Source of the DNA: Kineococcus radiotolerans SRS30216 = ATCC BAA-149
Lineage (GTDB): Bacteria; Actinomycetota; Actinomycetes; Actinomycetales; Kineococcaceae
Length of the DNA stretch: 32,000 nt
Assembly: GCF_000017305.1 (NCBI RefSeq)
Contig: NC_009664.2
Coordinates: 1,350,001 to 1,382,000 of the forward strand
Reading direction: 5' to 3'
Made by a program: the position numbers and the translations under genes. Under the pieces are notes generated by a model, which was given only the letters and a program-made list of their open reading frames with translations, did no database searches and was not told the origin of the DNA. Of the stretch, positions 1 through 22,584 are shown piece by piece. Position 1 is the stretch's first letter. Every line of letters begins with the position of its first letter.

Positions 1-502
1 CGACCGGGCGGGTCAGGAACCCGTCGGCGAGGGCCTCGGAGAACTCCCGGACCCCGCGGTCGTCGGCGAAGCGGAACGCGGTGCCGGGGCCGATCTCGGG
101 GACGAGGTAGTGGTAGTTCGTGTCGAACCACTTCGTCATCTCCAGCGGGGCGTCGGCCCCCCGCCCGCGGGCGATGGTGGAGTACCCGGCGAGGTCGACC
201 CGCCCGTCCTCCCCCACGACGTCGGCGAACCGCGGCGGGACCGCGCCGACCGCGACGGCGGCGTCGAGCACCTGGTCGTAGGCCGAGAACGCCGAGGGGA
301 TCGAGGCGTCGTGGGCGGGCAGGCCGAGGGAGTTGAGCCGGCGCACCGTGGCCGCCCGCACCCCGGCGAGGGCCCGCTCGGTGCTCGCGAGGTCGGCGCG
401 CCCGGCCCACAGCGCCTCGAGGGCCTTCTTGGCCTCGCGGTCGGCGCCGGTGCGGGGGTAGCCGAGGACGGTGGCGGTCCAGGCGGGGAGCTGTTCGGTC
501 AT
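1..502 (-). CDS. metE: Cobalamin-independent methionine synthase (5-methyltetrahydropteroyltriglutamate--homocysteine S-methyltransferase), N-terminal part; the gene runs off the window at position 1
   Basis: Reverse-strand translation from the ATG at 502-500 gives MTEQLPAWTATVLGYPRTGADREAKKALEALWAGR...GADAPLEMTKWFDTNYHYLVPEIGPGTAFRF. The 'EMTKWFDTNYHYLVPE' block is the classic MetE N-domain signature. It is absent from the ORF track because no stop lies in the window. Its ATG overlaps the metF stop (ATGA at 499-502). Confidence 0.9.
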   Translation of the reverse strand, partial: MTEQLPAWTATVLGYPRTGADREAKKALEALWAGRADLASTERALAGVRAATVRRLNSLGLPAHDASIPSAFSAYDQVLDAAVAVGAVPPRFADVVGEDGRVDLAGYSTIARGRGADAPLEMTKWFDTNYHYLVPEIGPGTAFRFADDRGVREFSEALADGFLTRPV

Positions 503-1452
503 CGTGCGGGTCCTCCTGCCGCGGCAGCCGTGCTGGCGCGGATCGGGTCGAGGGAGCGGGGCAGGTCGAGGTCGTCGAGCAGGTCGAGGGCCGGTTCGGC
601 CGCGTTGAACGTGTAGAGGTGGACACCGGGGGCGCCGGCGTCGAGCAGCCCGCGGGCCAGTCCCGCCGTGAACGCCGTCGCGGCGCGCCGGCGCCGGGGC
701 GCGTCGTCGGTGTCGAGCGCCGCCAGCAGCGGGACGGGGACGGGGACGCCGGTGAGTTCGCCGATCCGCCCCAGCCGACGGGTGCAGTCGGTCACCGCGA
801 CACCGGGCAGCAGCGGGATCCGCACCCCCGCCGCGCGGGCCCGGCGGACGAAGGCGGCGTACTCCCCGGCGGAGAACGTCACCTGGCAGACCGCGAAGTC
901 CGCGCCGGCGTCCTGCTTGGCGCGCAGCGCGGCCAGTTCGCCCTCGCCCCCGCGGGGGAAGGCGGCGACGGCGAGGCTCAGCGGGCCCTCGTCGACCGGG
1001 ACCCGCGCGCCCCGCAGGGCCGCCCGGCGCCGGTCGGCGACCTGGAGGAGTTCCACCAGGTCGCGGGCCGTGGCCACCCCGTCGGGGTGCGGGGTCCACC
1101 CCGCGTCCCCGGCCGGCGGGTCCCCGCGCAGGGCGAGGACGTTGCGGACCCCGGCGTCGAGGAACTCGCTGGCCAGGTCCACGACCTCGCGGCGGGAGGA
1201 CCCCACGCAGGTCAGGTGGGCCATGGCGGGCACGGCCGTCGTGCGGAGCACGTGGGCCAGCAGGTCCCGGCTGGGTCCGCGGGTGGCCCCGGCCGCGCCG
1301 AACGTGACCGACACGAAGTCCGGGCGGGCGGCGAGGAGGTCGGACAGCTTGCGCCACAAACCTTCCCGGGCGCTCTCGGAACGCGGGGGGAACAGTTCGA
1401 AGCTGAGGACGGGTCTCCCCGCCGCTCCGGCGACGAGGGGAGCCAGGGTCAC
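499..1452 (-). CDS. metF: Methylenetetrahydrofolate reductase
   Basis: 317-aa ORF with a GTG start at 1452. The N-terminus 'VLSFELFPPRS' and the blocks 'FVSVTFGAAG', 'AHLTCVG' and 'NVLALRGDPP' match the MetF family. It is translationally coupled to metE. Confidence 0.92.
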   Translation of the reverse strand: MTLAPLVAGAAGRPVLSFELFPPRSESAREGLWRKLSDLLAARPDFVSVTFGAAGATRGPSRDLLAHVLRTTAVPAMAHLTCVGSSRREVVDLASEFLDAGVRNVLALRGDPPAGDAGWTPHPDGVATARDLVELLQVADRRRAALRGARVPVDEGPLSLAVAAFPRGGEGELAALRAKQDAGADFAVCQVTFSAGEYAAFVRRARAAGVRIPLLPGVAVTDCTRRLGRIGELTGVPVPVPLLAALDTDDAPRRRRAATAFTAGLARGLLDAGAPGVHLYTFNAAEPALDLLDDLDLPRSLDPIRASTAAAAGGPAR

Positions 1453-1511
1453 CGCGGGCTGCCCGGGACCGGGACCGGGTAGGCGTCGACGACATCGGTG
1501 CTGCGCATCAC

Positions 1512-1608
1512 GAACTCCATCGGCCTGGCTTTAGCACCCTCGCCCGGGCTCGGGGGGTTGCTGCGGCGTCGTCGAGCCAGGACTCTCGGCCGCTCTGGAT
1601 GGTGTGGT
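1512..1608 (-). promoter_or_regulatory. SAM-I (S-box) riboswitch aptamer in the metF-metE leader
   Basis: Minus-strand read: ACACCATCCAGAGCGGCCGAGAGTCCTGGCTCGACGACGCCGCAGCAACCCCCCGAGCCCGGGCGAGGGTGCTAAAGCCAGGCCGATGGAGT. P1 is CCATC (1522-1518) pairing with GATGG (1603-1599 in plus coordinates). It carries the conserved S-box blocks AUC-AGAG-GG..GAGnG..UGGCnC..GA..CC..GCAACC and GGUGCUAAAnCC. It sits 66 nt upstream of the metF GTG. A near-identical core occurs at 7722-7820. Confidence 0.85.
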
Positions 1609-1612
1609 TCGA

Positions 1613-1642
1613 ATGTAGACCGGCACCGCGGCGCTCCACAAG
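1613..1642 (-). promoter_or_regulatory. Candidate promoter for the SAM-I/metF-metE transcript
   Basis: Minus strand reads TTGTGG (1642-1637), an 18-nt spacer, then TACATT (1618-1613). The -10 ends about 7 nt before the first P1 nucleotides. Sequence inspection only. Confidence 0.4.
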
Positions 1643-1756
1643 GGTTCCCCGGGAACACCGCCGGCGGTTCCCCCGGTCGGCCCCACCGGGGGTCCGGGAC
1701 GGCCCGCGACGCGCCGACCTTGCCGCCGGGCGGTGGTTCGTGGCAACCTCGCCGCA

Positions 1757-1870
1757 GGTCATGAGCGCCAGCGACAAGCCCCGGCTCGCTGGCCGGCAAC
1801 CCTCCTCCGCGGCGGGGTGCCCCGGGTGACGACCTGGCCGGTGCCGACGTGGCGCCGGCAAGCGCGGACC
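1757..1870 (+). promoter_or_regulatory. SAM-IV riboswitch aptamer
   Basis: GGTCATGAGCGCCAGCGACAAGCCCCGGCTCGCTGGCCGGCAACCCTCCTCCGCGGCGGGGTGCCCCGGGTGACGACCTGGCCGGTGCCGACGTGGCGCCGGCAAGCGCGGACC. As I recall it, this matches the actinomycete SAM-IV consensus almost base for base (GGUCAUGAG.GCCAGCG.CAAGCCCCGGCU.GCUGGCCGGCAACCCUCC...GCGG.GGGGUGCCCCGGGUGA.GACC...GGCAAGCGCGG). It lies 55 nt upstream of the GTG at 1926. Confidence 0.9.
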
Positions 1871-1925
1871 TCGCCGGGGGAACCCCGGTCCTCCCGGCAG
1901 GGTCCTGTTCCCGAGGAGACCCGTC

Positions 1926-3272
1926 GTGACGACCACCACCCTGTCCCCCTCCCGCCCCTGTCCCGGGGCGGTCCACGGGCCCCTGCTGCCCGTCGTCGGC
2001 GCGGGCACCCGCGTCCCCCTCGCCCACGGCGGGGAGATCCCCTACGCCAACCTGGACAACGCGGCGAGCGCGCCGGCGCTGACCGCGGTCGCCGACCGCG
2101 TCGCGCAGGTCCTGCCCCACTACGCCAGCGTCCACCGCGGCGCCGGGTACCTCTCCCGCGTCTCGACCGCGCTGTTCGAGCAGGCCCGCGCGCAGGTCGG
2201 CGCGTTCCTCGGGGCCGGCCCCGACGACGTGGTGGTCTTCACCCGCAGCACCACCGACGCCCTCGACCTGCTCTCGCGCGCGGTGCCGACGGGGGCGCGG
2301 GTGCTGGTCGCCGACGTGGAGCACCACGCGAACCTGCTGCCCTGGCAGCGCTCGGCGCGCACCACCGTCGTGCGCGGCGGCGCGGACGCCGGGGAGACCG
2401 CCGACCTGCTCGAGGCGGAGCTGGCCACCGGGCGCTACGCCCTGCTGGCCGTCGCGGGGGCCTCGAACGTGACGGGCGAGGTGCTGCCGCTGCGCCGCCT
2501 CGCCCGGGCCGCCCACGCCGCGGGCGCGCGCATCGCCGTCGACGGCGCGCAGCTGCTGCCCCACCGGCGGGTCGACCTCGGCCGCGACGGGATCGACTGG
2601 ATCGCGCTGTCGGGGCACAAGCTGTACGCCCCCTTCGGCGCCGGGGCGCTCGTCGGCCGCCGCGACTGGCTGGACGCCGCCGAGCCCTACCTCGCCGGCG
2701 GCGGCGCCACGCTCGACGTCGGCCACGACGCGGTGCGGTGGGCCAGCGGCCCCGACCGCCACGAAGCGGGTTCCCCGAACGTCGTCGGCGCCGTCGCGCT
2801 GGCCGAGGCCTGCGCGACGCTGGCCGCGCTGCCCGCCGGGGCGCTGGAGGCGCACGAGGCGGCGCTGCGCGAGCGGCTGGTCACCGGCCTGGGCGCGCTG
2901 GACGGCGTCCACGTCGTCCGCCCGCACCCCGAGGACGCGGTGGGGGTGGTGACGTTCACCGTGCCCGGCCACCCGGCGTCGGCGGTGGCGGCCTACCTCT
3001 CGGCCGAGCACGGCGTCGGGGTGCGCGACGGGCGGTTCTGCGCGCACCGGTTCGCCGACGCCCTCGGCCTCGCCGAGGGCGGCCTGCGGGCCTCCACCGG
3101 GGTCGGCACCGGGTCGGACGAGGTGGACCGGCTGCTCGCCGCCGTCGCGCAGTTCGTCACCACCGGCCCGGCGCTGGAGTACGGGACCACCGGGGGGCAC
3201 TGGGGTCCGCTGACCGACGCCCGCCCCGCGCCGGAGTCCTTCCTGCCCTCCCCCGGCGGGGGCCGGGGCTGA
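1926..3272 (+). CDS. Class-V aminotransferase-fold PLP enzyme, cysteine desulfurase/selenocysteine lyase-like
   Basis: 448-aa ORF with SD GAGGAG at 1913-1918 and GTG at 1926. Motifs: 'NLDNAASAP', 'YASVHRGAGYLS', the PLP-lysine motif 'SGHKLYAPFGAG', and 'VRDGRFCAH', which aligns to the SufS/CsdA 'RxGHHCA' catalytic-Cys loop. Confidence 0.8.
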   Translation: MTTTTLSPSRPCPGAVHGPLLPVVGAGTRVPLAHGGEIPYANLDNAASAPALTAVADRVAQVLPHYASVHRGAGYLSRVSTALFEQARAQVGAFLGAGPDDVVVFTRSTTDALDLLSRAVPTGARVLVADVEHHANLLPWQRSARTTVVRGGADAGETADLLEAELATGRYALLAVAGASNVTGEVLPLRRLARAAHAAGARIAVDGAQLLPHRRVDLGRDGIDWIALSGHKLYAPFGAGALVGRRDWLDAAEPYLAGGGATLDVGHDAVRWASGPDRHEAGSPNVVGAVALAEACATLAALPAGALEAHEAALRERLVTGLGALDGVHVVRPHPEDAVGVVTFTVPGHPASAVAAYLSAEHGVGVRDGRFCAHRFADALGLAEGGLRASTGVGTGSDEVDRLLAAVAQFVTTGPALEYGTTGGHWGPLTDARPAPESFLPSPGGGRG

Positions 3273-3319: not shown

Positions 3320-3706
3320 GTGACCGGGACCACCGCGGAACCGCCCGAGGCGCCGCTCGTCGACGCCGCGACCGCCGCGCGCGCCGTCGCCGCGGGCGCG
3401 CTGCTCGTCGACGTCCGCAGCGACGCCGGCCGTGCGGCGGCGGGCGACCTGCCCGGGGCCGTCGTCGTGGCCAAGACCGAGGTGGCGCGCCGGTTCACCC
3501 CGGGCGGGCCGGACGCCGTCCCCGGGCTGACCGGCCGGGACCGGCCCGTCGTCGTGGTCTGCGGCTCACCCGCGGGCTCCGCTCCCGTGGCCGCCCAGCT
3601 GCTGGCCGCCGGTTTCACCGACGTCGTGCACGTCGACGGGGGGTTCCCGGCGTGGAAGGCCGCCGGGCTGCCCGCGGGCGGACCCGCGGACTCGACGGAG
3701 CCCTGA
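3320..3706 (+). CDS. Rhodanese-domain sulfurtransferase (single domain)
   Basis: SD AGGAGAG at 3311-3317 and GTG at 3320, 128 aa. Motifs: 'LLVDVRS', active-site loop 'VVVCGSPAGS' and 'HVDGGFPAWKAAGLP', typical of rhodanese. The 5' part of track ORF 1733..3706 is an out-of-frame artefact. Confidence 0.8.
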   Translation: MTGTTAEPPEAPLVDAATAARAVAAGALLVDVRSDAGRAAAGDLPGAVVVAKTEVARRFTPGGPDAVPGLTGRDRPVVVVCGSPAGSAPVAAQLLAAGFTDVVHVDGGFPAWKAAGLPAGGPADSTEP

Positions 3707-4111: not shown

Positions 4112-5158
4112 ATGCCGACCCCGTTCCACGTGTTCCTCGACGTCGACGGCGGCGGGTGGCACCCCGCCGCCTGGCGCCGTTCCCGCGTCACCCCCGACGC
4201 CGTGCTGTCCCCGGCCCGGCTGCGGGAGTTCGCCGTCACCGCCCAGGCCCAGGGCCTCACGGGGCTGACGTTCGAGGACGCCGCGGCGCCGGACCCCCGC
4301 AACCCCGTCGGGCACCTCGACGCCGTCCAGCGCGCGGCGTTCCTGGCCGGCACGACCGACGCGATCGGGCTGCTGCCGGTGGCGGCGACGACGTACGCGG
4401 AACCGTTCCACGTCGCCGCGCAGATCGCCTCCCTCGACCACTCCAGCGCCGGGCGGGCCGGCTGGCTGGCGACGACGTCGCCCGCGGCGGTGGCGCGCGC
4501 GGTGGACCTCCCGGTGGCGCCGGACCCGGCCGCGGAGCTCGCGGACGTGGTCCGGGCCGTCCGCGCGCTGTGGGACTCCTGGGAGGACGACGCGGTGGTC
4601 CGCGACGTCGCCACGGGCCGCTACGTCGACCGCGACCGCCTGCATCACGTCGACGTCGAGACGGCGGGCTGGTCGGTGAAGGGCCCGCTCACGGTGCCCC
4701 GCCCGCCGCAGGGCCAGCCGGTCGTCGTCGTCCACGAGCGCGACCTGAGCGGCGCGCCGGGGACGGCCGACGTCGTCCTCACCGGCGACGAGCGCACCCG
4801 CCGGAGCGCGGGCGGCCCGCTCGTCGTGCTCGACGTCGAGCTCGCCCTCGACACCGACGCCGCACCCGGGGCCGAGCGGGTCGCGGCCCTCGACGCCGAC
4901 GCGCCCGCCCCGGTGCGCGACCGGGTGCGCTGGACGGGGTCCGGCGAGGGCTTCGCCCGCTACCTGTGCGGGCTGGCCGGCTCCTTCGACGGCGTGCGCC
5001 TGCACGCCGCCGTGCTCGACGAGGACCTGCGGGCGCTGCTGCGCACCACCCTCCCCGCGCTGCGGGTGGCCCGGCTGCTGCAGCCCCCGCTGCCCGGGTC
5101 CACCCTGCGCACCACCCTCGGCCTGACCCGGCCGGCCAACCGGTTCGCGACGACCTGA
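4112..5158 (+). CDS. Luciferase-like (LLM) flavin-dependent monooxygenase; short, divergent NtaA/DszA-type paralogue
   Basis: 348 aa with SD AGGAG at 4102-4106. The N-terminus 'FHVFLDVDGGGWHPAAWRRS' and the blocks 'LDHSSAGRAGWLATTS' and 'PPQGQPVVVV' parallel blocks in the downstream full-length paralogue ('HFGVFFQG..', 'LDVLSGGRAAWNVVTT', 'SPQGHPVVFQ'). Confidence 0.7.
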   Translation: MPTPFHVFLDVDGGGWHPAAWRRSRVTPDAVLSPARLREFAVTAQAQGLTGLTFEDAAAPDPRNPVGHLDAVQRAAFLAGTTDAIGLLPVAATTYAEPFHVAAQIASLDHSSAGRAGWLATTSPAAVARAVDLPVAPDPAAELADVVRAVRALWDSWEDDAVVRDVATGRYVDRDRLHHVDVETAGWSVKGPLTVPRPPQGQPVVVVHERDLSGAPGTADVVLTGDERTRRSAGGPLVVLDVELALDTDAAPGAERVAALDADAPAPVRDRVRWTGSGEGFARYLCGLAGSFDGVRLHAAVLDEDLRALLRTTLPALRVARLLQPPLPGSTLRTTLGLTRPANRFATT

Positions 5159-5167
5159 GGAGCCCCC

Positions 5168-6496
5168 GTGAGCGACACCACCAGCGACCTGCGCTTCCCC
5201 GACGCCGTCGTGCACTTCGGCGTCTTCTTCCAGGGCGTCAACCACAGCACCGTCTGGTCCGACCCCCGCAGCGGTTCCCAGCTGCACCCCTCGACGTTTA
5301 CCCAGCTGATCCGCACCGCCGAGCGGGGCCTGTTCGACGCGTTCTTCCTCGGCGAGGGGCTGCGGCTGCGCGAGCAGCACGGGAGGATCCACGACCTCGA
5401 CATCGTCGGGCGTCCGGACGCGCTCACCGAGCTCGCCACCCTGGCGGGGCTGACCGAGCGCATCGGCCTGGTCGCGACCCAGAACACCACCTACAACGAC
5501 CCCGCCGACCTCGCGCGCCGCCTCGCCTCGCTGGACGTGCTGTCCGGGGGGCGCGCGGCGTGGAACGTCGTGACCACCGACAACGCCTGGACGGGGGCGA
5601 ACTTCCGCCGCGGCGGGTACCTCGACCACGCCGACCGCTACGAGCGCGCCGAGCGCTTCGTGACCCTGGCCCGCCGGGTCTGGGACAGCTGGGACGGCGA
5701 GGGGTTCGCGCCCGTCACCTCGGCCGACCGGTTCTTCGACGTCGAGATCACCCCCACCGTCCCGCGCAGCCCGCAGGGCCACCCGGTGGTCTTCCAGGCC
5801 GGCGACTCCCCCGCCGGGCGCGACTTCGCCGCCCGCTCGGCCGACGTGATCTTCTCCCGGCACGGGACCCGCCACGACGACGCGCTCGAGTTCGCCGACG
5901 ACGTCCGGCGACGCGTCGTGGCCGCCGGCCGGCCCGAGGACGACGTCCTCGTCCTGCCCGGCACCCAGATCGTCGTGGCCGACACCGAGGCCGAGGTCGA
6001 GGAGAAGGCCCGCTGGGTGCTGGAGCAGCAGGTCACCCCGGCGACGGCCCTGTCCCTGGTGGGCCAGGTCTGGGGCGAGGACCTCTCCGGCTACGACCCC
6101 GACGGCCCGCTGCCGACGCACGACCCCGTGATCGCCGTCGTCGACGGCACCCGCGGCGCCGCCCGTCAGGGCCACGACCCCCGCGCCATCGCGCAGCGGT
6201 GGCGGGCGGTCGCGGAGGAGAACAAGTACTCGCTGCGCGAGCTCGTGCTGCACCACTCCTCCGAACGCGGTTTCGCCGGGACCGCCTCGCAGCTGGCCGA
6301 CGAGCTCACGCACTGGGTGCGCAGCGGGGCCTGCGACGGGTTCAACGTCACCCCGTACCTGGTGCCCAGCGGGCTCGACGACATCGTCGACCAGCTCGTC
6401 CCCGCGCTGCAGGACCGGGGCGCCTACCCGGCCGGGTACGTGGGGACGACGCTGCGCGAGCACCTCGGGCTGCGCCCGCCGCTGACCCGCCGCTGA
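5168..6496 (+). CDS. NtaA/SnaA/DszA-family FMNH2-dependent monooxygenase
   Basis: 442 aa with SD GAGGAG at 5157-5162 and GTG at 5168. Motifs: 'LDVLSGGRAAWNVVTTDN', 'YERAERFV', 'PQGHPVVFQAGDSPAGRDFAARSADVIF' and 'FAGTASQLADELTHWV..GACDGFNV', typical of this family. Confidence 0.85.
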   Translation: MSDTTSDLRFPDAVVHFGVFFQGVNHSTVWSDPRSGSQLHPSTFTQLIRTAERGLFDAFFLGEGLRLREQHGRIHDLDIVGRPDALTELATLAGLTERIGLVATQNTTYNDPADLARRLASLDVLSGGRAAWNVVTTDNAWTGANFRRGGYLDHADRYERAERFVTLARRVWDSWDGEGFAPVTSADRFFDVEITPTVPRSPQGHPVVFQAGDSPAGRDFAARSADVIFSRHGTRHDDALEFADDVRRRVVAAGRPEDDVLVLPGTQIVVADTEAEVEEKARWVLEQQVTPATALSLVGQVWGEDLSGYDPDGPLPTHDPVIAVVDGTRGAARQGHDPRAIAQRWRAVAEENKYSLRELVLHHSSERGFAGTASQLADELTHWVRSGACDGFNVTPYLVPSGLDDIVDQLVPALQDRGAYPAGYVGTTLREHLGLRPPLTRR

Positions 6497-7721: not shown

Positions 7722-7820
7722 GGTGTCCATCCAGAGCGACCGAGAGACCTGGCTCGTCGACGTCGCAGCAACCCCCTGATCCGTCAGGCGCGGGTGCTTC
7801 CGCCAGGACCGATGGGAGAA
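7722..7820 (+). promoter_or_regulatory. SAM-I (S-box) riboswitch aptamer, second copy
   Basis: GTGTCCATCCAGAGCGACCGAGAGACCTGGCTCGTCGACGTCGCAGCAACCCCCTGATCCGTCAGGCGCGGGTGCTTCCGCCAGGACCGATGGGAG. P1 is CCATC (7727-7731) pairing with GATGG (7811-7815). Its core blocks match the 1512-1608 copy. The two copies are visible in the ORF track as the shared peptide 'HPERPR[VD]LARRRRSNP' on opposite strands. Confidence 0.85.
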
Positions 7821-7985
7821 CCCGTGCGCACCGCCACACCCGGCGAGCGGCTCGTCCGCCGCCGCCACGTCGACCTCGGCCGGTTGAGCTCCTCCGCCTG
7901 TGCGGGGTGCTGACCCCCGTCCGTCGCGGCACCCCCTCGGACGAGAACCCTGCGCCGTCGTCGGCGCGACCACCGGAGTACCCCC

Positions 7986-10064
7986 GTGCCCTCGCCGTCC
8001 CCCCGCACGTCCACCCCGCCCTCCCCCACCTCCGACGCCCCCGCACCTCCCGCGCCCCGCAGCCTCTGCGTCGTCGGGGCGGGCCCGCGCACCCTGGTCC
8101 TGCTGCAGCGCCTCGGCGCCCACGTCGCCGCCTCCCCCGGGGAGCACCCGGGTCTCGACGTGCACGTCGTCGACCCGCACGACTCCGGCGCCGGCCGGGT
8201 CTGGCGGGAGGCGCAGGACCCGCTGCTCTGGATGAACTCCCGGGCGTGCGACATCACGGTGCTGCCGGACGACTCCGTGACCGGCCTGACCGGCCCGGTC
8301 GGGCCGGGACCCTCGCTGGCCGGGTGGATCGCGGAGAACCGCGCCGACCTCGTCCGCGACGCCGCCGCCGCCGGGGACGACCTGCTGCGCGAGGAGGTGC
8401 TGCGCAGCGAGCCGGGTTCGTTCGTGTCCCGGCGCCTGGCCAGCCGCTACCTGGCCGCGGCCTGGCGGCGCACCCTGGACGGGCTGCCCCCGGGCCTGCG
8501 GGTGCACCGGCACGCCCGCACCGTCGTCGACGTCGTGGACGCCGTGGATGACGTGGATGACGTGGACGCCGGGCCCGGGGGTGGGGACGGGGACGGCCGC
8601 CAGCTCGTGCACCTCGACGGGACCGGCGAACCCCTCGCCGTGGACGTCGTGCTGCTCGTGCAGGGCCACCTCGACGTGCACCCGGGTCCGCGCGAACGGC
8701 GGGCGGCGACGTTCGCCCGCGCCCACGGCCTCGCCCACGTCCCGCCCGGGTACACCAGCGACCAGGACCTCGACGTCCTGGTCCCGGGCAGCGACGTGGT
8801 GGTCGTCGGCATGGGACTGGCCTTCGTCGACCTCGTGGTCCGCCTCACCGAGGGCCGCGGCGGGCGGTTCGAGGAACGCCCCGACGGCAGCCTGGAGTAC
8901 CGCCCCAGCGGCCGGGAACCGCGGCTGCACGCCGGTTCCCGCCGCGGGGTCCCCTACCGCTCCAAGATCGGGTACCCGAGCCCCACCGACCTCGGCCTGC
9001 CGCGGTACTGCACCGCGAGCGCCGTGGAGGCCCGCCACGGCACCGGCCCCCTGGACCTGCGCGCGGACCTGTGGCCGCTCGTGGTCAAGGAGCTCGCCGG
9101 CGCGCACTACCGGGAGCTGTTCCGCACCCACCGCGAGCGCACCGCCCTGGCCCCGGCCGAGTTCGACGCCCGCTTCAGCCGCTCGCCCTGGGGCAGCGCG
9201 GAGATCGACGAGCTGATCGCGCGCGCGGTCCCCGACCCCGCCGACCGCTTCGACGTGACCGCCCTCGACCGCCCCCTCGACGGGTGGTGGGGGACCTCCG
9301 GCGACGAGGTGCACGAGCGGGTGCTGCGGCACCTGGAGGCCGACCGCGAGCGCCGGACGGACCCCCGCCACTCCCCCGACGCCGCCGTGGTCACCGCCCT
9401 GCTGTCCACCTACGTCGTCGTCGCCGGCCTGCACGCGGCGGGCCGGCTGAACGCGCGGTCCACCGCGCTGGACCTCGACGGCTGGTGGCACGGGTTCTTC
9501 AGCTACGTGGCGAGCGGGCCGCCGCCGCAGCGGCTGCGGCAGTTGTCCGCGCTGGCGCGGGCCGGGGTCCTCCGCTTCCTCGGCGCCGACGTGCGGGTGC
9601 GTCCCGACGCCGACGAGGGGGTCTTCGTGGCCTCCTCGGCCAGCGGCCCGCACGAGGTGCGCGCCCGCGGCCTGGTGGAGGCCCGGCTGCCGGTCGCGGA
9701 CCTGGAACGCACCTCCGACGTCCTGCTGACGCGGTTGCGCGGACGCGGCGAGGTGCGGGCCCACGAACTGCTCGACGGCGAGGCGCGGTTGTCCAACGGC
9801 CGCCTCGTCGTGGACGGGCGCGGGCGGCTGGTGCGGGCCGACGGCAGCGTCCACCCCCGCCGCTTCGCCACCGGCGCCTGGGTCTCCGGGGAGGCCGGCG
9901 CCCCGGCCTTCGCCCGTCCCGGGGCGGACGCCGAGGTGTTCCGCCGCGCCGACCGGCTGGCCGCGGACGTGCTGCGCGCCGGCCGCCCCGCTCCGCCCGC
10001 GCCCCGCGCGGGCACCACCCCCGCCGCGGCCCGCCGCGAGCTCCCCCGAGGACGAGGACGATGA
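7986..10064 (+). CDS. FAD/NAD(P)-binding domain protein (PF13454-like), function unknown
   Basis: 692 aa with GTG at 7986. The N-terminal dinucleotide fold is 'LCVVGAGPRTLVLLQRL' and a second Rossmann-like motif is 'VVVVGMGLAFVDLVVRL'. Its stop overlaps the permease ATG (ATGA at 10061-10064). Confidence 0.75.
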   Translation: MPSPSPRTSTPPSPTSDAPAPPAPRSLCVVGAGPRTLVLLQRLGAHVAASPGEHPGLDVHVVDPHDSGAGRVWREAQDPLLWMNSRACDITVLPDDSVTGLTGPVGPGPSLAGWIAENRADLVRDAAAAGDDLLREEVLRSEPGSFVSRRLASRYLAAAWRRTLDGLPPGLRVHRHARTVVDVVDAVDDVDDVDAGPGGGDGDGRQLVHLDGTGEPLAVDVVLLVQGHLDVHPGPRERRAATFARAHGLAHVPPGYTSDQDLDVLVPGSDVVVVGMGLAFVDLVVRLTEGRGGRFEERPDGSLEYRPSGREPRLHAGSRRGVPYRSKIGYPSPTDLGLPRYCTASAVEARHGTGPLDLRADLWPLVVKELAGAHYRELFRTHRERTALAPAEFDARFSRSPWGSAEIDELIARAVPDPADRFDVTALDRPLDGWWGTSGDEVHERVLRHLEADRERRTDPRHSPDAAVVTALLSTYVVVAGLHAAGRLNARSTALDLDGWWHGFFSYVASGPPPQRLRQLSALARAGVLRFLGADVRVRPDADEGVFVASSASGPHEVRARGLVEARLPVADLERTSDVLLTRLRGRGEVRAHELLDGEARLSNGRLVVDGRGRLVRADGSVHPRRFATGAWVSGEAGAPAFARPGADAEVFRRADRLAADVLRAGRPAPPAPRAGTTPAAARRELPRGRGR

Positions 10065-22305: not shown

Positions 22306-22584
22306 GGTCCCAGTGTCCTCCACGAGTGCGGGAGCCGACGACCAGGGCGCCGGCTGTCCCCCGGACGCCACGTCGTCGCGACGTCCCGAGGGGTTCAACG
22401 CGCAGTGACGTCGAGAACATCCCGCGCGCGGCCCTTGCCCCCGCTCCGTTCGTCGTGCATGATCCGAGCACCGCAGCGTCGCGACCGTCCCACCAGGGCC
22501 CGGCAGCGACGCCGAGGACAACTGAAGACCCCATTCCACAACGGATCGTCCGGCACGTACCTGCCGGTGGAAGGACACACGACG

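Follow-up and report, generated by a model that had tools for sequence, protein, structure and literature searches.

We propose, with a probability of roughly 0.7, that the intergenic region between a metF-type gene and a class-V PLP enzyme gene of Kineococcus radiotolerans carries two OFF switches that respond to SAM independently and have separate promoters, and that the gene order of Kineococcus set them back to back. Both elements are of known kinds, and no new principle of regulation emerges from the locus. Its newest part is a candidate relay that leads from a SAM-I aptamer, through a short upstream open reading frame (ORF), to metF.

Two classes of SAM aptamer on opposite strands of one intergenic region

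We searched the whole 32,000-nt stretch of DNA under analysis (here, the window; G+C content, 75.5%) against Rfam with cmscan, using the gathering thresholds. On the plus strand, a SAM-IV aptamer (RF00634) was found at positions 1757 to 1870, with a score of 109.3 bits (gathering threshold, 38; E = 1.5e-19) and an alignment that spans model positions 1 to 116 of 116 and is not truncated. On the minus strand, a SAM-I aptamer (RF00162) of 92 nt was found at positions 1605 to 1514, with a score of 63.0 bits (gathering threshold, 44.4; E = 1.4e-12; model positions 1 to 108 of 108). The 5' ends of the two aptamers are separated by 151 nt (1606 to 1756). The covariance models thus bear out an initial annotation of this DNA, which had described two classes of SAM aptamer transcribed divergently from one intergenic region; the coordinates that it gave, 1512 to 1608 on the minus strand for SAM-I and 1757 to 1870 on the plus strand for SAM-IV, were essentially right. 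The same search also returned a second SAM-I aptamer at positions 7724 to 7818 on the plus strand, which is the third SAM-clan element of the window, and an msiK RNA at positions 22523 to 22582.

Both RNAs of the intergenic region qualify as members of their Rfam families, although helix P4 of SAM-I is vestigial. Helices P1 to P3 align well to RF00162; at P4, the 18-nt insert of the model is replaced by 1 nt, and a single P4 pair is aligned. Every Kineococcus copy has such a vestigial P4. In SAM-IV aptamers, the P3 loop pairs with the 3' tail to form a pseudoknot. Reading the complementarity from the window sequence, the P3-loop segment CCGCG (1807 to 1811) is perfectly complementary to the 3'-tail segment CGCGG (1863 to 1867).

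Downstream of SAM-I on the minus strand lies a gene of the methylenetetrahydrofolate reductase family (MTHFR/metF type; positions 499 to 1452), which encodes 317 amino acids from a GTG start codon at 1452 to 1450 and scores 186.8 bits against Pfam MTHFR; its NCBIfam TIGR00676 score of 186.6 bits is under the equivalog cutoff of 293.7. Downstream of SAM-IV on the plus strand lies a gene for a class-V PLP enzyme of the SufS/cysteine desulfurase family (positions 1926 to 3272; 448 amino acids; Pfam Aminotran_5, 259.8 bits), whose NCBIfam SufS family score of 264 bits is under the subfamily cutoff. The closest relatives of this protein are from Kineococcus species (79 to 85% amino acid identity). 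It is followed on the same strand by a gene for a single-domain rhodanese (positions 3320 to 3706; Pfam Rhodanese, 48.6 bits), which is probably cotranscribed with the class-V gene, and then by genes for two luciferase-like monooxygenases of the NtaA/DmoA family. Independent gene calls on a public 2.8-kb contig agree for the class-V and rhodanese genes. Pfam and NCBIfam agree with the neighbors named in the initial annotation, metF on the minus strand and a class-V PLP enzyme on the plus strand, and both downstream units consist of sulfur or methionine genes. No metZ gene was found within the window.

Distribution of the divergent arrangement

With Rfam, we scanned 80 loci that encode relatives of this class-V enzyme, taking a single genome from each species. 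SAM-IV lies directly upstream of the class-V homolog in 76 of the 80 loci, which are spread across Actinomycetota (genera including Nocardia, Rhodococcus, Gordonia, Williamsia, Kineococcus, Kribbella, Kitasatospora, Embleya, Pseudonocardia, and Patulibacter), and in most of them it is found 16 to 68 nt upstream of the class-V start. The four loci without SAM-IV include one in which the contig breaks off within the gene and another with only ~150 nt of upstream sequence. In Streptomyces lividans, a cysteine desulfurase gene is reported to follow SAM-IV, and SAM-I to occur elsewhere in the genome (PMC8079986). Given this case and the 76 loci, both the SAM-IV/class-V unit and the presence of the two aptamer classes in one actinobacterial genome are ordinary; SAM-IV in front of a SufS-like class-V gene is ancient and routine.

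A divergent SAM-I aptamer is confined to six Kineococcus loci among the 80 (L001, L002, L003, L004, L007, and L061). These orthologous SAM-I aptamers score 54 to 62 bits. In four of the loci, the aptamer is followed by metF, which makes five metF-type sequences together with the window, and the aptamers of these four (L001, L002, L003, and L061) are nearly identical to that of the window. In L004 and L007, SAM-I precedes genes for a rhodanese and an O-succinylhomoserine sulfhydrylase (metZ), and it is a distinct variant, whose P3 is shorter and whose 3' end differs. We rejected the explanation that this variant is the metF aptamer with swapped cargo, given that its 3' end is closer to that of the second SAM-I aptamer of the window. 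Judging from these sequences, two different SAM-I units came to adjoin the SAM-IV unit within the genus Kineococcus. Some Gordonia and Williamsia loci have a metZ homolog that precedes the SAM-IV/class-V unit and shares its strand, which points to a general clustering of genes for homocysteine synthesis and sulfur mobilization and not to a purposeful pairing of aptamers. The back-to-back layout looks like a by-product of sulfur-gene clustering in one genus, that is, a genus-level accident of synteny. In the literature, we found no report of divergent SAM-I/SAM-IV pairs.

An alternative, which builds on the initial annotation, is a purposeful pairing of the two folds. According to this explanation, the aptamers would form a functional pair with a shared promoter region and promoter interference, in which SAM-I acts by transcription termination and SAM-IV acts on translation, so that two sulfur operons respond at different SAM thresholds. 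Both aptamers are indeed real and divergent, their layout is kept in 6/6 Kineococcus loci with enough upstream sequence, and the two folds could possibly differ in affinity. Yet in about 70 other loci the SAM-IV/class-V unit has no SAM-I neighbor at all, and within Kineococcus the partner itself varies, being a metF unit in four species and a metZ unit in two. We consider a functional pair quite improbable, also in view of the spacer and of the SAM-I leader, which are described below.

Each aptamer has a separate conserved promoter core

A generic sigma-70 scan of positions 1300 to 2100 returned no promoter; both promoters emerged only from comparative alignment. On the minus strand, the SAM-I/metF promoter (1641 to 1612) would consist of the −35 element TTGTGG (1641 to 1636), an 18-nt spacer, and the −10 element TACATT (1617 to 1612). 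A TACnnT hexamer occurs upstream of SAM-I in 7/7 Kineococcus sequences, ending 6 nt before the aptamer (4 nt in L004 and L007), and TTGnnn is found 18 nt further upstream in 5/5 metF-type sequences. The initial annotation had proposed this same TTGTGG-18-nt-TACATT candidate, which is present and conserved in related species. From its position, transcription is predicted to start at ~1606 to 1605, the first nucleotide of the SAM-I aptamer.

On the plus strand, the putative SAM-IV promoter (1720 to 1749) comprises the −35 element TTGCCG (1720 to 1725), an 18-nt spacer that includes an extended −10 TG (1741 to 1742), and the −10 element CAACCT (1744 to 1749). Conservation extends across genera in this case. 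Among 77 SAM-IV leaders, an NANNNT hexamer lies 5 to 9 nt before the first SAM-IV nucleotide in 76, TTGnnn is found at a spacer of 16 to 19 nt in 66 (48 of which are TTGACA), and the −10 element carries the TG extension in 54; at random positions of the same loci, NANNNT and TTGnnn came up together in 3 of 1,540 tests. The commonest −10 element of these leaders is CAATCT/CAACCT, with an atypical first base, which is why no convincing −10 element had been seen on this strand earlier. That view can be revised, since TTGnnn-17/18-TGn-CAnnCT recurs in different genera with its distance to the aptamer unchanged. The start predicted from it, at ~1756 to 1757, coincides with the first nucleotide of the SAM-IV aptamer.

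As had been expected, both promoters fit between the aptamers, with 78 nt separating their −35 hexamers in the window. The distance between the aptamer 5' ends ranges from 76 to 168 nt among the seven Kineococcus sequences. In L007, where it is 76 nt, the promoters must abut, an arrangement that would favor a functional pair. However, the spacer is otherwise unconstrained: when the seven Kineococcus spacers are aligned, conservation is limited to the two promoter cores, and the center is unalignable. We looked for a shared operator or conserved spacer element and rejected this candidate, having found only local inverted repeats (for example, 1649 to 1676) that are not conserved. The cores are separate, and the DNA between them is neither conserved nor fixed in length, which lends no support to a shared promoter region or to obligatory promoter interference and leaves two independent promoters as the preferred reading.

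The SAM-IV leader and its putative expression platform

The SAM-IV leader looks like one that acts on translation, as far as can be judged from its sequence and from that of its relatives. A terminator scan of positions 1300 to 2100 found no terminator-like site on either strand. Across genera, the aptamer is followed by a variable linker, a conserved GGGUCC(C) box, a short loop, the Shine-Dalgarno (SD) sequence, and the start codon. In the window, the SD sequence of the class-V gene is GAGGAG (1913 to 1918), located 7 nt before the GTG at 1926, with an anti-SD duplex of −8.7 kcal/mol; this GAGGAG is conserved in Kineococcus. The GGGUCC box at 1900 to 1905 is a candidate switching sequence with two alternative partners, as indicated by duplex analysis and a constrained fold. 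One is the aptamer tail GGACCU (1866 to 1871), in which G1866 and G1867 are common to the pseudoknot strand and whose pairing with the box is indicated by duplex analysis and covariation. The other is the SD side (G1915, G1916, and 1918 to 1922), where G1918 to C1922, with G1915 and G1916, takes in the SD core GGAG.

We analyzed the tail, box, and SD duplexes in the 68 leaders that have 28 to 80 nt between the aptamer and the start. The best partner of the tail within the linker is the box (mean, −11.7 kcal/mol, against −8.6 kcal/mol in shuffled linkers), and the best partner of the SD region within the linker is the same box (mean, −12.2 against −9.3 kcal/mol). The footprints of the two partners overlap by at least 3 nt in 59 of the 68 leaders, with a mean overlap of 7.4 nt, and by 8 nt in the window leader. 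For a covariation test, tail and box were registered without gaps, and the box was anchored by its motif and not by pairing. In the resulting 8-bp tail-box helix, 85% of the cells are paired, against 78% in column shuffles (0/500 reach 85%), and the covariation score is 0.265, against 0.160 in the shuffles (0/500 reach 0.265), with the qualification that the P values are inflated by the phylogenetic relatedness of the 68 leaders. Double-sided changes occur at six of the eight pairs, where, because of the anchoring by motif, positions 1 to 4 are constrained and the independent signal comes only from positions 5 to 8. When the partner was slid, at most 55% of the cells were paired.

When the tail was blocked in silico, the SD sequence was predicted to become less accessible in 36 of 74 leaders and more accessible in 4. 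In the window leader, the unpaired probability of the SD sequence is ~0.45 to 0.49 in either modeled state, and the tail-box energy of −10.8 kcal/mol is close to the −10.3 kcal/mol of shuffled linkers. We also folded six SAM-IV leaders from Kineococcus with the aptamer enforced, with no constraint, or with the 5' strand of P1 blocked; the modeled SD accessibility of the Kineococcus leaders barely shifted (0.45 against 0.46 to 0.49). Thermodynamic modeling of the window leader thus does not separate the two states, and for this leader the switch model draws mainly on the family-wide pattern. Single-sequence minimum free energy folds of the SAM-I and SAM-IV leaders gave z-scores of −1.5, −0.5, and +1.4, which are not significant, so that at 75% G+C such folds carry no information. 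The platform varies within the family, since Gordonia and Kribbella leaders have the SD sequence 6 to 10 nt from the SAM-IV aptamer and lack the box.

Based on these features, we propose the following sequence of events. Transcription from TTGCCG-18-TGg-CAACCT would start the mRNA at the first SAM-IV nucleotide. With SAM bound, the tail segment CGCGG (1863 to 1867) would be held in the pseudoknot, and the free GGGUCC box would pair with the SD region, blocking translation of the SufS-like gene and probably that of the rhodanese gene as well. In the absence of SAM, the tail (1866 to 1871) would pair with the box, and the ribosome-binding site would be freed.

A candidate relay from SAM-I through an upstream ORF to metF

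In the cmscan alignment, the 3' strand of SAM-I P1, GAUGGAGU (1521 to 1514), holds the SD sequence GGAG (1518 to 1515). The AUG of a putative upstream ORF (1508 to 1506) follows 6 nt after GGAG, with only 5 nt between the aptamer and the AUG. This ORF (1508 to 1449) has 19 codons (MRSTDVVDAYPVPVPGSPR*), its peptide is proline rich, and its UGA (1451 to 1449) overlaps the metF GUG (1452 to 1450) as GUGA. The leaders of L001, L002, L003, and L061 have the same GGAG-6-nt-AUG spacing, an ORF of 18 to 19 codons, and an AUGA overlap with metF. The overlap of stop and start, as AUGA or GUGA, is thus present in 5/5 metF-type leaders, which suggests termination-reinitiation. The frame of the ORF is kept across a 3-nt indel, despite low conservation of the peptide. 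No recognizable SD sequence precedes metF in the window. We rejected a metF start at a more distant upstream codon of the same frame, as L002 has an in-frame stop there. In L004, L007, and the second SAM-I leader of the window, GGGAG(G) begins inside the 3' strand of P1, and a GUG follows 5 nt past the purine run; these paralogous SAM-I units start their first ORF directly from the SD sequence embedded in P1.

Some of these features carry less weight than their recurrence might suggest. A 19-codon open frame is unremarkable in DNA of 75% G+C, the UGA is automatic because metF begins with Met-Thr, and the five metF-type Kineococcus species are close relatives.

Our best reading, on moderate evidence, is that SAM-I would turn off translation without a platform separate from the aptamer. 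The initial annotation had raised the possibility that SAM-I acts on transcription and SAM-IV on translation. This contrast finds no counterpart in the leaders: with the SD sequence of SAM-I inside P1 and no terminator-like site in 1300 to 2100, both switches look translational, which also argues against the functional pair discussed above. On the minus strand, TTGTGG-18-TACATT would start the mRNA at the first nucleotide of the compact SAM-I aptamer, and P1, when stabilized by SAM, would hide the GGAG sequence. When P1 is open, ribosomes would translate the 19-codon upstream ORF, and metF would then be made by termination-reinitiation at the GUGA overlap.

A different account is that SAM-I controls metF mainly at the level of transcription, through Rho-dependent premature termination or mRNA decay when translation of the leader ceases, with the short ORF serving only to keep Rho off. 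The leader is C rich and has no intrinsic terminator, and in a preprint, translated upstream ORFs in actinobacterial leaders are linked to conditional Rho termination (bioRxiv 10.1101/2022.06.01.494293). The AUGA/GUGA overlap in all five leaders, together with the lack of a recognizable metF SD sequence in the window, points instead to coupling, although Rho termination and reinitiation are not mutually exclusive. We consider control mainly through Rho or decay unlikely, with a small but appreciable chance. Still a little less probable, in our view, is that the short ORF is untranslated and that metF starts independently, the riboswitch acting via an undetected long-range pairing. The poor conservation of the peptide and the abundance of open frames at 75% G+C fit such an account, as do weak AGGA/GGGA motifs 9 to 14 nt before the metF ATG in L001, L003, and L061. 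Against it, GGAG with an AUG at 6 nt is the sole good ribosome-binding site of the leader in 5/5 species, the frame survives the indel, and the paralogous Kineococcus units use the same P1-borne SD sequence directly.

The strictest version of the relay combines several of these steps: SAM-I would be a minimal switch that lacks P4 and uses P1 to hide directly the site where ribosomes bind the upstream ORF, metF would be made solely by termination-reinitiation, and SAM-I and the nearby SAM-IV could be compared within one cell as two SAM folds that differ in threshold. We put this combined version forward tentatively, as somewhat short of an even chance. Such a difference in SAM threshold between the folds is possible.

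Significance and comparison with known systems

The comparative data yield a testable model of how the pseudoknot tail of SAM-IV may be coupled to the ribosome-binding site, as well as the candidate relay from SAM-I to metF. A fragment of 470 nt contains both SAM folds with short and different translational platforms and fits a dual reporter, which makes it a compact test bed. If the relay is true, its location 151 nt from a SAM-IV leader with a different, three-element platform would provide a natural comparison of two SAM folds in the same cell.

The SAM-IV leader resembles other RF00634 elements found before cysteine desulfurase-like genes, such as S. lividans SLIV_26975 (PMC8079986), in the class-V family of the gene, the 5' leader position, and the pseudoknot complementarity. 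The layout of promoter and platform is common to Nocardia, Rhodococcus, Gordonia, and Kineococcus. Nothing essential differs from other SAM-IV leaders; the Kineococcus form is more G+C rich and has an extra hairpin (1873 to 1898) between the tail and the box.

The SAM-I leader is like other SAM-I/S-box elements (RF00162) in its core sequence, in helices P1 to P3, and in its position before methionine-pathway genes (metF and metZ). It differs in being only 92 nt long, with P4 down to a few nucleotides. The terminator/antiterminator platform of the Firmicutes S-box is absent here; the SD sequence is embedded in the 3' strand of P1 instead, so that the aptamer itself would be the expression platform.

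Tandem and contiguous riboswitch arrangements have been surveyed (PMC12452182). The Kineococcus locus is similar in that two aptamers for the same family of ligands lie no more than a few hundred nucleotides apart. However, tandem riboswitches act on one transcript and one gene, whereas the aptamers described here lie on opposite strands, in separate transcripts, and control different operons; therefore, no cooperative or logic-gate behavior is expected. We rejected the classification of the locus as a tandem riboswitch, as the two aptamers are transcribed away from each other.

In the ppe2 leader of Mycobacterium tuberculosis, a B12 riboswitch controls a proline-rich upstream ORF, uPPE2, whose stop overlaps the ppe2 start as AUGA, and ppe2 is proposed to depend on termination-reinitiation (PMC11260477). 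The two leaders are alike in that a riboswitch would govern initiation at a short upstream ORF, which is rich in proline and ends in an overlap with the start codon of the main gene (as GUGA in the window). They differ in that the aptamer here is SAM-I and not B12, that the SD sequence lies directly in P1, and that the Kineococcus relay is a candidate predicted from sequence. By this analogy, the B12/uPPE2/ppe2 leader is the closest tested precedent for a putative SAM-I-upstream ORF-metF relay, which, if true, would be its SAM-class counterpart.

SAM-I aptamers of Kineococcus

All Kineococcus copies of the SAM-I aptamer are unusually short, at 87–95 nt, namely, both copies in the window (1514–1605 on the minus strand and 7724–7818 on the plus strand) and those at the six related Kineococcus loci (L001–L004, L007, and L061). 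All that remains of helix P4 is a linker some 8 nt long, and the 18-nt insert of the SAM-I model is represented by 1–2 nt. The reduction of P4 accounts for the modest scores of these aptamers (50–63 bits).

Immediately upstream of the −35 element of the SAM-I promoter lie local G+C-rich inverted repeats spanning 1649–1692 (1649–1662/1663–1676 and 1670–1680/1682–1692, plus strand). Alignment with relatives showed no conservation of these repeats; some relatives carry comparable but nonhomologous GGTTC…GAAC repeats.

Surroundings of the SAM-IV/class-V unit

Some 400 nt beyond the rhodanese gene come two genes for NtaA/DmoA-family FMN-dependent luciferase-like monooxygenases (4112–6496, plus strand), both conserved in the Kineococcus loci. 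This region may be an organosulfur-assimilation cluster adjoining the SAM-IV unit.

In Gordonia and Williamsia, a homologue of metZ, encoding O-succinylhomoserine sulfhydrylase, lies directly 5′ of the SAM-IV/class-V unit and shares its strand (about 2–890, plus strand, in loci L065, L069, L072, and L073). In genera other than Kineococcus, this adjacency connects the SufS-like enzyme with the synthesis of homocysteine; the role of the enzyme may be to provide persulfide sulfur. The Nakamurella leprariae locus (L039) has a second SAM-IV aptamer directly 3′ of the class-V gene (4508–4619, plus strand; 91.9 bits), and thus two SAM-IV units in series on one strand.

Unrelated riboswitches also neighbor the class-V gene on its 3′ side, namely, a ZMP/ZTP riboswitch in Williamsia (L072, 4430–4508) and a c-di-AMP riboswitch in Flexivirga (L068, 5657–5794). 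The window itself contains an msiK RNA motif (RF01747; 22523–22582, plus strand; 61.7 bits), unrelated to the SAM-I/SAM-IV pair.

A second SAM-I leader

The second SAM-I aptamer of the window (50 bits) is associated with a short open reading frame, the two together occupying 7724–7924 on the plus strand. The 3′ strand of its P1 helix holds the start of a GGGAG sequence, and a GUG at 7835 begins a 29-codon frame (peptide VRTATPGERLVRRRHVDLGRLSSSACAGC*). The next gene encodes an FAD-NAD(P)-binding protein (7986–10064, plus strand). The peptide matches the NCBIfam “putative leader peptide” family NF042934 with a score of 27.4 bits (cut-off, 27); it also shows a weak match to the Ms4527A Cys-rich leader family. 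This region could be a two-input leader, sensing both SAM and cysteine supply.
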